From IMG/VR virus record IMGVR_UViG_3300021335_000004: a stretch of DNA of 64,000 nucleotides; one strand, written 5' to 3'. Shown piece by piece: positions 25,338 to 29,864 of the stretch (position 1 is its first letter; every line of letters starts with the position of its first letter). Under the pieces are notes generated by a model. It was not told where the DNA came from. It searched no databases and was given only the letters and a program-made list of their open reading frames with translations. Source of the stretch: a virus. A program made the position numbers and the translations under genes.

Positions 25338-25875
25338 TTTTTGTCTCCATATCTTCTATGGGCGGAATACGGCCTGGATTAGCTTCCCAACTATCAGCAG
25401 CTTTATCGCCAATTTTACCAAGATATGGACAAGGCGTTCCAGCCATTTCCATTGCATCATATACTCTACGATCTTGACAAAGTACAGATACAGCTGCAAC
25501 TTTCATCCCCATATCATATAATGTCTTACTTATTTTAAGTCTTTCACAGTTTTTATCCCTGACCATCTCACCTGATGAGATACCAAGTATTTGAGTTTGT
25601 ACTGCGCCAGAAACTCCGGACAGACATAGATCTGATGATGAAGAACCTACACCAGGCGATATAGCACTTGGCGGTGGAGATACAACTATAGTACGAGAAC
25701 TTGCATCTGTTTCAACTTTTGAATTTGATTTAGAATCTGTAATAACTGTTGATGCAGTCTGCGCAATTGCTTGATTTTCATTAGCAAAGACCAGAATGAA
25801 AAATACTACGACAAGCAAACTTATCATAGTACATAATGGTAATACTACCTCTGTCTTTTCTCTTATTTTTACCAT
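25264..25875 (-). CDS. membrane/exported Cys-containing protein
   Basis: N-terminal TM/signal; PPPSAISP..DLC, D.NCERLK.SK.LYDMGMKVAAVS.LCQD.RV..AM.MAGTPCP; C-terminal TM. Confidence 0.8.
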   Translation of the reverse strand: MVKIREKTEVVLPLCTMISLLVVVFFILVFANENQAIAQTASTVITDSKSNSKVETDASSRTIVVSPPPSAISPGVGSSSSDLCLSGVSGAVQTQILGISSGEMVRDKNCERLKISKTLYDMGMKVAAVSVLCQDRRVYDAMEMAGTPCPYLGKIGDKAADSWEANPGRIPPIEDMETKSDVQKRNGAIAAGGISLALLLLLL

Positions 25876-25894
25876 TTATTAGCATTTTCCCCAT

Positions 25895-26143
25895 TCATCT
25901 ATGCGATCTAGTTTTCTTTGCTATTTTCTTAGGCTGTTTAACAAACTGCTTACCAGCTTTGGAACCTTTGCGTTTAGCACTATTAGTAGCAGCTTTTTCG
26001 CCAGAAGATAACGAAGACCAAGCAGATTTAGGTAAATACCTACCTCGCTTTTTACGAGGTTTTTTACTTTCATCTTTATTAGAGTATCCCCATTCTTGGC
26101 GAGTCCAATTAACTAAAGATTGTTGAGTAGGTTTTCTAGCCAT
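25895..26143 (-). CDS. small basic protein (C-terminal half of a DUF5872-like module)
   Basis: QQSL..WT.QEW...GRYLPKSAW..LS..EK.ATN..KRKG...GKQFV. Confidence 0.7.
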   Translation of the reverse strand: MARKPTQQSLVNWTRQEWGYSNKDESKKPRKKRGRYLPKSAWSSLSSGEKAATNSAKRKGSKAGKQFVKQPKKIAKKTRSHR

Positions 26144-26328
26144 TATTTTTTATACCCTCCACCAGCTGACTTATATGCTTTAGCTAGCATTTGTGCTTTA
26201 CGTGCGCTCCATTGTCCTGGTGCGCCGCCTTTTCCGCCTGATTTAATTCTTTGAAATAAGCGTTTTCTCATGGTTGGTTTAGTATAAACTTTAGCTTCGT
26301 TAACTCTAGACTTAGGTTTTTTTGCCAT
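26143..26328 (-). CDS. small basic protein (N-terminal half of a DUF5872-like module)
   Basis: YTKPTMRKRLF..IK.GGKGG.PGQWSARKAQMLA..YK..GGGY; TAATG-coupled to the next ORF. Confidence 0.75.
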   Translation of the reverse strand: MAKKPKSRVNEAKVYTKPTMRKRLFQRIKSGGKGGAPGQWSARKAQMLAKAYKSAGGGYKK

Positions 26329-26443
26329 TTTCTTTTCTCTTTTTCATTCGCTCAATAAACTTTTTTCTAACTGTATCTTCCCACTCTTTTTCAGCAGTTT
26401 TAGTTTCTTTAGTTTTAAATATATTTTTTAATTTATCAATCAT
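26312..26443 (-). CDS. small Lys-rich protein, 43 aa (not in ORF track)
   Basis: MIDKLKNIFKTKETKTAEKEWEDTVRKKFIERMKKRKENGKKT; ATGA-coupled to the upstream ORF. Confidence 0.5.
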   Translation of the reverse strand: MIDKLKNIFKTKETKTAEKEWEDTVRKKFIERMKKRKENGKKT

Positions 26444-27045
26444 TTTATAAAAGCACCTATTCTACCGTGTAAATCTGGATATTCAACATATTTCCAATCT
26501 TCAGGGGGTTGGGTATTATCATCTTCCCATACCGGAATAAAATCAGAATTATCCCATTGAAAATCTAAATTACGTCTTAATTGACATTCAATTAATTTAT
26601 TACCAATAAACTCACAATTTATATAATCATAAGGTATATTATTAAGTATAGTCGGGAAACTAACTATTTTTTCTAAGGCTGGAAAGTCATCAACTTTAGA
26701 CCAAGCATCCCAATACATTAGTTCTTCTGGATCTTTAAAACCTTCTACACACAATACTACTTTTTTATTTCTATAATCAACAGATAAATGTCTACCCTTA
26801 AACCACTCACACCAAAAATATCCTATTGGTAAATTATCAGTATCTTTATCAATCCAAACACGCTCTGCTCCAAATCCTAATCCCATAAGATTCATTATAG
26901 GTCTGACTATATACCAGCCAGGTTTTGGAACATCAACTCCTATAGGTCCACATACGTATCCTAATTTTTTAGATAAGATTAACTTATCATAAATCCAAAT
27001 ATCTTCAGGCTTTAAAATAGCCCACACCTCGTCTTCAGTATTCAC
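26440..27045 (-). CDS. ATP-grasp-like protein
   Basis: YDKL, YIVRP..N..G.G.GA, FWCEWF.G.HLSVD, INCEFIG.KLIECQLR resemble the ATP-grasp motifs DK, VxKP-G-G-G, QEY-G-E-SVD, EvNxR; GTGA coupling. Confidence 0.55.
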   Translation of the reverse strand: MNTEDEVWAILKPEDIWIYDKLILSKKLGYVCGPIGVDVPKPGWYIVRPIMNLMGLGFGAERVWIDKDTDNLPIGYFWCEWFKGRHLSVDYRNKKVVLCVEGFKDPEELMYWDAWSKVDDFPALEKIVSFPTILNNIPYDYINCEFIGNKLIECQLRRNLDFQWDNSDFIPVWEDDNTQPPEDWKYVEYPDLHGRIGAFIK

Positions 27046-27218
27046 TTCTTTTTCTTTTTTGCTAAAATAGCTTTCTGAAGTGCAGGAGGAAGTTTCTTTT
27101 GGGCAGCGCTTAATCCTGCACCATTAGGTTTTTTCTTAGCATCAGCTTTTTTAGAGGTATTTTTACTCATAAAAGCTGGTTTACCGTTCTTCATCGGCAT
27201 CTTTTTATGTTTAGCCAT
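27042..27218 (-). CDS. small Lys-rich protein, 58 aa (not in ORF track)
   Basis: MAKHKKMPMKNGKPAFMSKNTSKKADAKKKPNGAGLSAAQKKLPPALQKAILAKKKKK; GGAG RBS; its stop overlaps the GTG of the next gene. Confidence 0.75.
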   Translation of the reverse strand: MAKHKKMPMKNGKPAFMSKNTSKKADAKKKPNGAGLSAAQKKLPPALQKAILAKKKKK

Positions 27219-27264
27219 TGTTTATTCTCCAATCTCAAGTCAAAATTATCACGTAAATAAAGTA

Positions 27265-27315
27265 GCGGAGACTCCGTCTCCGCGTTGTGCCACTTCGTGG
27301 CATCTTGTTGCAACA
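27265..27315. repeat. tandem GC-rich inverted repeats (two triloop hairpins and a palindrome)
   Basis: GCGGAGAC-TCC-GTCTCCGC (27265-27283), TGCCAC-TTC-GTGGCA (27288-27302), TGTTGCAACA (27306-27315). Confidence 0.85.
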
Positions 27316-27393
27316 TAGGGGAAAGCCATGTTCATTCTATGTTCAATTAAGTAAAAATAAAATTTTATGTTGATTGCATCTAAGTTCAAACTA

Positions 27394-27422
27394 ATAGTAA
27401 CACAAATTTTGCTATTCTGCAA
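27394..27422 (-). promoter_or_regulatory. sigma70-type promoter with a long leader
   Basis: TTGCAG-17 nt-TACTAT with extended TG; about 170 nt to the next ATG (27218). Confidence 0.55.
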
Positions 27423-27433
27423 ACATAATATTT

Positions 27434-27646
27434 TTACTTTCGTTTTTTACTCTGAGCACTAGACTTTCCTGCTGCGCTTAGTGCGATTGCTACAGCCTGC
27501 CTACGGCGAGCCTTGCTTGTAGATTCGCCAGTGCGCTTTGCTAGTGTGCTAATAGATTTTGAACGAGTTTTAGAAGGGCTCTTTTTAATTAGCTCACGAA
27601 TATTAGTAGAAATTGTTTTTTGAGATTTACCACGTTTTAAAGGCAT
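27434..27646 (-). CDS. small basic protein
   Basis: MPLKRGKSQKTIS.NIREL...QAVAIALS.AGKS; 21 of 70 residues are K/R. Confidence 0.75.
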   Translation of the reverse strand: MPLKRGKSQKTISTNIRELIKKSPSKTRSKSISTLAKRTGESTSKARRRQAVAIALSAAGKSSAQSKKRK

Positions 27647-28321
27647 TTAGCAATCCTCTGTTTTTATTTCTACAATCATTTCTTTTGTATCTTCTTCGTC
27701 AGACTCATTCATACCAGCAAGTTCACGAATTTTCGCTACATGTGTTGCCTCAACGTAAGCATGCTCTTCACGAAGACCCATCATACCTGCTAAAAACATT
27801 ATTTCATCTGCTATGTTTTCTGCCATTTGAACATCTGAAACATTAGCTTGATCATTTTCAATAGCCATCTTTTCCATATAGAAGAGTACGTCTTGTAATT
27901 TTGCAGTACGCTCTGCGACATCCATAGAATCTGAATCTATCTGACTTTCAATAGATTTATAAAGTGTTTCAGCACTAGGACAAATATCAAAATGTTTTGT
28001 GGTATAAGATCCGACTTCTATACCTCCATCTTCGTTTACAACTTCAAACCTCATATCATCATTTTTTACAGAGAATAGAGATTTTGGCGGTGCTACTAAG
28101 TCAGTATTATCACGAGTTTCTTCAATATCTGACGAATACATAAGATAATCTCTAGCAGAATTTAAATAGGCTGAAGAAACGGCAAGTTTATTAGTCCACC
28201 AAGTTGGAAGCTCAGCTTCGCCGTCTTGTGGAAGTGTTCTCATAATATCTCCTACATCTTCCATAATGGTTCTACACATTCTACGAGAAGATGCTACATC
28301 TGTATGTCCGTCTTTTTTCAT
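27647..28321 (-). CDS. acidic hypothetical protein, possible internal virion protein
   Basis: ELPTWWTNKLAVSSAYLNSARDYL motif; strongly acidic; ATGA coupling. Confidence 0.65.
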   Translation of the reverse strand: MKKDGHTDVASSRRMCRTIMEDVGDIMRTLPQDGEAELPTWWTNKLAVSSAYLNSARDYLMYSSDIEETRDNTDLVAPPKSLFSVKNDDMRFEVVNEDGGIEVGSYTTKHFDICPSAETLYKSIESQIDSDSMDVAERTAKLQDVLFYMEKMAIENDQANVSDVQMAENIADEIMFLAGMMGLREEHAYVEATHVAKIRELAGMNESDEEDTKEMIVEIKTEDC

Positions 28322-28515
28322 TTTTTCCTCTTTCTAAATCCAATTGGTTTGGAATATTTAATTGGCCATCCACTATTACGAGACTTTGTAATAAAGGTTT
28401 CAAGTTCTTTTTCAGTTAAAACACCTGACGTAGCTTTACGACGTATTCTTTCATTTCTAGGAATACGTGGTGCTGTCGGTCTAACAAAAGTAAATTTTCC
28501 AACTTTCTTTTTCAT
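28318..28515 (-). CDS. small basic protein
   Basis: 21 of 65 residues are K/R; ATG 5 nt after a perfect TATAAT. Confidence 0.7.
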   Translation of the reverse strand: MKKKVGKFTFVRPTAPRIPRNERIRRKATSGVLTEKELETFITKSRNSGWPIKYSKPIGFRKRKK

Positions 28516-28520
28516 GCTTT

Positions 28521-28549
28521 ATTATAACTTTTATCTTAGTAGTGCGCAA
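28521..28549 (-). promoter_or_regulatory. sigma70-type promoter, probably leaderless transcript
   Basis: TTGCGC-17 nt-TATAAT-aaagc-ATG. Confidence 0.7.
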
Positions 28550-28559
28550 ATATTAATTT

Positions 28560-29864
28560 TTAAACTTTCAACACACATTCTACTAGTTTTTCCTCTGAAT
28601 TACTGTTAGATTCTAAAGCAACTCCTACTAACATACCTTTACCTTCTGCTTTAGCAACTCCTGACGAGCTTGTAAAAATTCTAGAACCCTTAGTAACTTC
28701 ACCTATAATTCTAATTGGCAGACGTCCTTTAAGACCAATATATTGACCTTCTGTATCTGCGTTCATTTTAAAGGCAGGATTTTCAGAAATAACACCAATA
28801 GCGCATCCTCCTTCACTACAAGCCTCTGTCTCAAATTTATTAGAAGTAGAAACCATCATCACTGTTCCAATAGAATACTCTTCATCAGTAGTATATTTCT
28901 CAGCCAAGTCAGCATATTTGGCAGTAGTTGCTAATCCAAAAAATTCACCACTAGCATACATATTTCTAAACTGATTACCAGTAGCCCCAACATCAATTGT
29001 TGCAGTAGTTGGAAGTAAATTAACAGCAAAATCAACACTATTAGAGTCAATGCTCATACGTTTAGTACCACCAGTAGTAAATCCTATATCATCTGTTCCT
29101 TCACGGAAAATACCAGTATCAGTATCATCTTCAAAAGTTATAGAAGGGGCTGCTTGAGTACCATCTTGAAATTGGGCTCCGTCTAATTGTAAAAAACCAC
29201 CAGTAGCATTTAGAGAAATATGATCTACAGAAGTACCAATTAGCACTGCATTTGAAAAATAACCATCTCTGTATCTATATGTCCAGTCTCCAAAATCAAC
29301 AGTAGCATCTGTAATAGGTTCTACTTTTGCATCAAGAGCTAAATGATGAGGCTTAACCGACCCTGGATAAGGGATACCTACATCAATAAATCCAGTTTGT
29401 GCTGCTCCGTTTGATACTTTCATATATAAACGGTTATTAGAAGAAGCTCCTAGTCCAGACTCAGAAACTCTTCTTATACTAGTCTGAGTTGTGTCTGAAG
29501 AATTTACTACAGCAACTAGTTCTCCAATTTCATAATCTCTCATGTCCATAGTAGAAAGTTGAGTAGTAAAACTTGTTGCTATTCCATATCTAGTAAAATT
29601 GTTTCCCGGCCATAATCCCGTTCCTCCAGAAGGAGGTTTAGCGTGATTTGTATCCTTTATATATAATCTACCATTTATAGAATCTCTCCAAAAAACCCCA
29701 TTAGGGATAGTTCCTGTTGACCCTTCATCGTTAAAATCAGTTCCTAACGGTTGTTCTTGCCCATAAAAATTTCTACTAATTGCTCTTAAACTAGAATTAA
29801 AGTCATTCCTTGAAAGAGCAATTGTTCTAGAAAAAGCAGGCAATAAAAATTGTTCATTTGACAT
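28560..29864 (-). CDS. tail fibre/spike protein with a C-terminal chaperone-like domain
   Basis: GTQAAPSITF..DTDTGIF fibre motif; AKYADLAEKY...GTV...IGVIS.NPA..MN...LKGR.P...VGVALE autocleaving-chaperone-like C-terminus; last gene of the tail-tip block. Confidence 0.75.
   Translation of the reverse strand: MSNEQFLLPAFSRTIALSRNDFNSSLRAISRNFYGQEQPLGTDFNDEGSTGTIPNGVFWRDSINGRLYIKDTNHAKPPSGGTGLWPGNNFTRYGIATSFTTQLSTMDMRDYEIGELVAVVNSSDTTQTSIRRVSESGLGASSNNRLYMKVSNGAAQTGFIDVGIPYPGSVKPHHLALDAKVEPITDATVDFGDWTYRYRDGYFSNAVLIGTSVDHISLNATGGFLQLDGAQFQDGTQAAPSITFEDDTDTGIFREGTDDIGFTTGGTKRMSIDSNSVDFAVNLLPTTATIDVGATGNQFRNMYASGEFFGLATTAKYADLAEKYTTDEEYSIGTVMMVSTSNKFETEACSEGGCAIGVISENPAFKMNADTEGQYIGLKGRLPIRIIGEVTKGSRIFTSSSGVAKAEGKGMLVGVALESNSNSEEKLVECVLKV

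Follow-up and report, generated by a model that had tools for sequence, protein, structure and literature searches.

The 64,000-nucleotide (nt) window analyzed here, part of the 70.8-kb virus record IMGVR_UViG_3300021335_000004 in IMG/VR, carries on its minus strand a gene (positions 26440-27045, GTG start) for a 201-amino-acid (aa) protein whose predicted structure is that of a stand-alone ATP-grasp catalytic module. We consider it reasonably probable that this protein is an active ATP-dependent ligase whose substrate is not identified by its neighbors, and that its gene entered a pre-existing operon of basic microproteins. By analogy with its structural relatives, the protein is most likely a carboxylate-amine ligase, and its substrate is most likely not specified by the genes around it. 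The family to which it belongs, with hundreds of clusters in ocean phages and a few members in bacterial bins, was listed as "hypothetical" everywhere searched until now; it can be labeled a minimal ATP-grasp family with intact catalytic residues, and ATP-dependent carboxylate-amine ligation can be put forward as a concrete chemistry for it.

Predicted fold and distribution of the family

An AlphaFold2 model of the 201-aa protein, built on 75 diverse relatives, scored highly (predicted local distance difference test, 95.5; predicted template modeling score, 0.90), and in this model the protein has an ATP-grasp fold with just two parts, the nucleotide-binding RAGNYA one and the kinase-like one. 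Among the matches listed by Foldseek against the PDB there were ATP-grasp enzymes only: PylC came first (E 4e-6), then 3df7, PsnB, and PurK, all with a Foldseek probability of 1.00. VIA-align against PDB representatives gave the same picture, its best 50 rows being ATP-grasp enzymes throughout and spanning residues 1-201, with Z-scores of 12.4 for BacD (3vmm), 12.1 for 3df7, 11.9 for PurK, and 11.6 for PurD; run over Foldseek's own matches, it placed PurK 4mam at Z 13.0. The nearest named clusters in the ESM Atlas were PurP and ATP-grasp_3, and in a viral structure library named ATP-grasp proteins ranked after one family member. The high-confidence model and the two PDB searches bear out the fold that a sequence-only reading of this DNA had proposed from motif resemblance.

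Full-length ATP-grasp chains align to the model only from their residue ~47-106 onward, so the phage protein corresponds to the catalytic module without a pre-ATP-grasp domain, a non-catalytic part that most members of the superfamily possess at their N terminus. Fused longer homologues were sought in the searched collection and none was found, a Pfam scan named no domain in the extensions of the longer family members (243-287 aa), and the gene just upstream encodes a basic peptide of 58 aa. RNA-ligase-type ATP-grasp enzymes were ruled out, since the structural matches are carboxylate-amine ligases.

In PHROGs, the protein falls in phrog_3577 (E 1.2e-45), a group of unknown function. This shortened ATP-grasp form is common in ocean phages and has no name in Pfam, NCBIfam, PHROGs, or PADLOC. 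Searches against Pfam, NCBIfam, PADLOC, and (by phmmer or profile) PDB sequences returned no family name for the 201-aa protein, and the Pfam model ATP-grasp_3 matched just 2 of 75 family members, at E 0.04. A VapB antitoxin match was rejected as a weak coincidence over a short motif. The family is large (832 clusters when grouped at 90% identity, 509 when grouped at 50%) and almost wholly viral: a search of 185,579 prokaryote species genomes yielded only 11 loci, most of them in metagenome bins. The gene is present in 50 phage records, all of them Synechococcus phages, and two cultured carriers of the family are available, Synechococcus phages S-T4 and ACG-2014f.

Loci of relatives compared with the window, which were retrieved with single proteins and a 10-sequence alignment as queries, are given L-numbers below. 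Four of them (L065-L068) come from soil bacterial metagenome bins, where homologues with 42-45% identity lie on GC-rich contigs of up to 238 kb with no obvious phage genes in the stretches examined. Beside them lies a gene for a putatively PhnB/VOC-like protein of 161 aa, and in L067 and L068 there is also a small zinc-finger protein, presumably MqsA-like.

Catalytic positions and proposed chemistry

Burroughs et al. (2015; PMC4431377) defined the catalytic positions of the ATP-grasp superfamily. Counted over 238 relatives and judged against the strands of the AlphaFold2 model, these positions are ~94-99% conserved in the phage family. The linker Lys, K21, lies in the helix before the first strand and is K in 234/238 relatives and R in 2. 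R48 ends RAGNYA strand 2 (43-49) and is R in 224 and K in 12 (together 236/238); a Gly-rich loop, N52-x-x-G55-x-G57-x-G59, follows it and precedes strand 61-65. E145, within the fourth kinase-like strand (141-147), occurs in 236/238 relatives, E153, at the end of the fifth strand (150-155), in 233/238, and R157 in 232/238. The asparagine of the canonical ExN motif is replaced: position 155 is H in 210 and Q in 20 of the 238, and the ExQ group includes the window protein and its 17 closest relatives.

By analogy with PurK, L-amino-acid ligases, PurD, biotin carboxylase, and PylC, K21 and R48 would hold the ATP phosphates under the short Gly-rich loop, and E145, E153, and H/Q155 would hold Mg2+. 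A carboxylate would be activated as an acyl-phosphate with the aid of R157, and the acyl group would then be transferred to an amine.

The replacement of ExN by ExH or ExQ might instead mark a protein that is not a ligase at all, either an ATP-grasp-fold kinase of the inositol-phosphate-kinase type or an ATP-binding or structural protein without catalytic activity, and inositol-phosphate kinases of the same fold do match the model (Z 6.8-8.6). We regard this as highly improbable. Ligases score clearly higher (Z 11-13), polar replacements of the ExN asparagine are known in active ATP-grasp families (PMC4431377), and the four catalytic positions and R157 are conserved to a degree that speaks against a dead enzyme.

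Relation to known ATP-grasp enzymes

The closest structural likeness is to enzymes of the PurK and biotin carboxylase type. PurK 4mam superposes with a root-mean-square deviation (rmsd) of 3.2 over 195 residues, E. coli biotin carboxylase (3rv3) scores Z 11.5, and the EMNTR segment of E. coli AccC resembles the E-x-(N/H/Q)-x-R pattern that closes the last core strand of the phage protein. The differences are considerable: identity is 8-13%, the whole N-terminal domain is missing from the phage protein (these enzymes align from residue ~47-80), its lid region is shorter, H or Q stands in place of N, and its gene has no consistently linked purine-pathway or biotin partner.

Because the best structural matches include PurK, L-amino-acid ligases, PurD, and PurT, the protein could be a small-molecule auxiliary metabolic enzyme, working in purine or nucleotide metabolism (PurK/PurT/PurD/PurP-like) or in amino-acid ligation on a metabolite that many marine hosts share. 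The PurP clusters nearest in the ESM Atlas would fit, as would the ribonucleotide reductase (Pfam) beside some family members and the neighbors of others that by sequence seem to resemble phosphoribosyl pyrophosphate (PRPP) synthetase and cytidylyltransferase. We nonetheless think this unlikely. The N-terminal domain, which helps bind the ribonucleotide or acceptor substrate in PurK/PurD-type enzymes, is absent, and no metabolic partner is consistently linked to the gene across contexts. Furthermore, the Z-scores of different ATP-grasp families lie within ~1-2 of one another, so their ranking does not identify the subfamily.

The chemistry that we propose is that of the L-amino-acid ligases and PylC: BacD, RizA, and PylC are carboxylate-amine ligases whose substrates are amino acids or the side chain of a Lys, and they match the model well (Z 12.4 for BacD/YwfE, 11.8 for 3vot in the group that also includes RizA, and 10.8 for PylC). 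Unlike the phage protein, they have 350-470 residues with an N-domain, and they show no sequence-level match to it. The tightest superposition is with 3df7, a putative ATP-grasp protein of Archaeoglobus fulgidus (rmsd 2.8 over 171 residues, 14% identity), which differs in being archaeal, in its length of 301 residues with an N-terminal part, and in having no known function.

RimK, LysX/ArgX-LysW, the graspetide ligases PsnB and CdnC, and TTL/TTLL, which modify peptides or proteins, share the fold, and LysX-LysW and clusters for peptides made by ribosomes and modified after translation (RiPPs) likewise place the enzyme gene beside a gene for a small protein. Their Z-scores are lower (9.7-9.8 for LysX/ArgX, 7.7 for RimK, 7.7 for TTLL11, and 6.9 for CdnC), the 58-aa peptide has hardly any acidic residues whereas Glu/Asp carboxylates are what their substrates offer, and the pairing of enzyme and peptide is not conserved across the phage family. 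The R2K clade (Cdc123, R2K.2/DUF4343, and R2K.3) also includes phage-borne ATP-grasp proteins, which have been proposed to modify proteins (PMC4431377, PMC7824862). Its members lack the linker Lys and the Gly-rich motif and have a second Lys/Arg in the strand 2-3 loop (PMC4431377). In the phage family, both a linker Lys (K21) and a Gly-rich loop (N52..G55xG) are present, which rules out membership in this clade, and Pfam scans of the family passed no model, those for R2K included.

An operon of basic microproteins, with and without the enzyme

In the window, the enzyme gene lies among small genes, all on the minus strand. Upstream of it, a 58-aa basic peptide ending in KKKKK (27042-27218) has its TGA stop overlapping the GTG start of the enzyme within GTGA at 27042-27045. 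Downstream, the enzyme's stop overlaps the ATG of a 43-aa Lys/Glu-rich open reading frame (ORF; 26312-26443) within ATGA at 26440-26443; this ORF shares 17 nt with the gene for a 61-aa basic protein (26143-26328; phrog_17747, E 2.3e-31; motif GQWSARKAQ...GGGY), and a TAATG overlap joins the latter to the gene for an 82-aa basic protein (25895-26143; phrog_14910, E 5.3e-28). This layout is as the sequence-only reading had described it.

The 58-aa gene has 49 clusters of relatives, and the C-terminal module of its product (...AAQKKLPPALQKAI.AKKKKK) is near-invariant: the last 24 residues hardly vary, with 19 columns identical in 28 relatives. Since this holds despite many synonymous codon changes across relatives, the ORF is a true coding gene. 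A tblastn search of cultured phage records with the peptide gave no match.

The peptide family also exists apart from the enzyme, in four other phage contexts, and one of these enzyme-free peptides is 73% identical to that of the window. No ATP-grasp was found by a hidden Markov model search of the peptide-bearing loci L055-60, nor did the called-gene lists of the peptide-bearing loci L073-79 hold one of that size. In L055-57, the stop of the 58-aa-type peptide overlaps the start of an 83-aa basic protein, a homologue of the 82-aa protein (ATGA), and this is the same junction that the ATP-grasp gene fills in the window. In L058-60 and L076-79, the 82-aa homologue starts 1-2 nt past the peptide stop, with no ATP-grasp between. 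DNA matches to the stretch of the 61-aa, 43-aa, and 82-aa genes occur in Pelagibacter, Puniceispirillum, Roseobacter, and Methylophilales phages, the best being centered on the 61-aa gene, and none of these phages is among the 50 records that bear the ATP-grasp gene.

The microprotein module, at 25895-27218 in the window, recurs without ATP-grasp and in varying order in several marine phage lineages (L055:2275-2913, L059:994-2912, and L073:2001-3060), and its members are of the 58-aa type, the 61-aa GQWSARKAQ type, an 82-87-aa type, and a ~100-aa type. A basic peptide of 48-51 aa (..KKSRQG..TKY..SRN.ARK.YRGQG) occurs in cyanophages (L021:1498-1644 and L024:2837-2992), where, in the loci examined, its gene is situated upstream of the baseplate gp25 region; it has no annotated function.

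Neighborhoods of the enzyme and the question of its substrate

The enzyme, for its part, occurs in ~30 distinct contexts where its neighbors are unrelated or none is of note, with more added by the bacterial bins, and most of these contexts are without any basic peptide. Neighbors named by Pfam include ribonucleotide reductase and DNA polymerase B, and others, judged by N-terminal sequence, are presumably PRPP synthetase, cytidylyltransferase, glycosyltransferase, and bilin reductase with heme oxygenase. In a crude count, basic ORFs were not enriched beside the enzyme (8/72 adjacent versus 22/303 non-adjacent positions; Fisher p=0.33). The sequence-only reading had proposed that the enzyme modifies the neighboring Lys-rich peptides and had named homologues without adjacent peptides, together with an absence of modification, as evidence to the contrary. 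The comparative data do not favor this proposal, and they agree with the first half of that contrary evidence: the peptide family does occur without the enzyme, and homologues of the enzyme are mostly found without such peptides. Seen across the family, the picture of an enzyme with neighboring peptide substrates is not conserved. Judged by its relatives, the enzyme gene seems to have come by chance to lie among these lysine-rich small genes and not to make up a dedicated peptide-modifying system with them.

We propose instead that the ATP-grasp gene was inserted into an older microprotein operon (the 58-, 61-, and 82-aa genes and others), which exists alone in other phages, and that the insertion would have kept the operon's stop-start coupling. 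The enzyme would then act on a substrate encoded elsewhere, be it a protein (of host or phage) or a metabolite.

Several points weigh against this explanation. The catalytic residues were mapped by motif and strand order, not by residue-level superposition: a profile comparison with E. coli AccC (hhalign, hmmsearch) gave no usable alignment, so the mapping rests on motif and strand positions. The pairing with basic peptides is also recurrent. All close relatives, with ATP-grasp proteins at least 66% identical, have a 57/58-aa peptide directly upstream, which overlaps the enzyme start by 4 nt or abuts the start codon. The cyanomyovirus enzyme also directly follows a basic peptide; in Synechococcus phage S-T4 (MH412654.1), arranged as in the window, an unannotated 34-aa ORF ending in KKRKKKK (L001:2876-2980) overlaps the enzyme start by 4 nt. 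In a sister clade, the enzyme is coupled to a DUF3008 protein (L008, 3078-4004; L081, 2001-2501), the ATP-grasp gene overlapping the stop of the DUF3008 gene by 4 nt in L008 and 1 nt in L081. These repeated pairings may stem from a genuine functional link that escaped the crude enrichment test.

Such a link would be accounted for if the enzyme acted on the neighboring Lys-rich microproteins. Its action could be like that of RimK/TTL, lengthening the C-terminal poly-Lys tail of the 58-aa peptide, or like that of PylC, acylating Lys side chains, or it could cross-link the Lys/Glu-rich 43-aa peptide. Besides the pairings just described, the stop-start coupling on both sides of the enzyme gene, the strong protein-level selection on the C-terminal module of the 58-aa peptide, and the presence of PylC, LysX/ArgX, and PsnB among the structural matches are consistent with this, and the missing N-domain would leave an open site that might fit a macromolecular substrate. 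We consider it quite unlikely all the same. The peptide family occurs without the enzyme in the four contexts described above, and the cyanophage 48-aa peptide is present in 395 phage records versus 50 with the enzyme. The 43-aa ORF, kept with conservative substitutions in L003, L006, and L013, is replaced by a 154-aa membrane-like protein in L010/L011. It is likewise distinctly unlikely that the phage ligase tails or acylates basic microproteins of marine phages, namely the 58-aa peptide (near-invariant ...LPPALQKAILAKKKKK end), DUF3008 proteins, and the cyanomyovirus 34/48-aa peptides. If it did, phages that bear the enzyme would tune the charge or length of their basic microproteins, and others would use the unmodified forms.

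The locus lacks the features of a graspetide (microviridin-type) RiPP system, in which the ligase is conserved along with a precursor peptide encoded beside it, whose core offers Thr/Ser/Lys and Asp/Glu for cross-links between side chains. The 58-aa peptide contains one Asp and no Glu, and with a single acidic residue it cannot be a graspetide-type core, internal cross-linking of that type being impossible; the replacement of the 43-aa ORF and the lack of a conserved pairing point the same way. Since the family does not conserve this layout, layout by itself gives annotation pipelines no ground for naming the locus a RiPP or peptide-modification cluster.

In S-T4, an unannotated 49-aa basic ORF lies just upstream of the 34-aa ORF, and in L008 and L081 a family-B DNA polymerase lies a few genes downstream of the DUF3008/ATP-grasp pair.

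Conserved leader and other features of the locus

The 58-aa gene is preceded by a 215-nt non-coding leader (27219-27433, minus strand), which separates it from a 70-aa basic gene upstream (27434-27646, minus strand). The leader is more conserved than its flanking genes, with 89% column identity among relatives that share only 66-86% identity in their ATP-grasp proteins. It contains two perfect GC hairpins with GNA-type triloops (27302-27288 and 27283-27265), both 100% paired across relatives with three compensatory changes, all in L006, and its fold has a z-score of -2.66. An Rfam search of the leader found no matching family. Promoter-like sites lie at 27422-27394 (TTGCAG-17-TACTAT) and 27389-27362, though over 25500-28700 such sites were not commoner than in shuffled sequence (15 found versus 11.4 expected). 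The structured leader claimed for the 58-aa gene was confirmed as a conserved gap with two covarying hairpins. A U-rich run behind the second hairpin makes this hairpin terminator-like, and the hairpin element could be a terminator, an attenuator, or an RNA-stabilizing element.

The 60-aa and 82-aa basic genes of some close relatives are separated by an inserted 190-aa Methyltransf_24 gene (L003:4925-5497; also L004 and L005), which indicates that the operon tolerates insertions.

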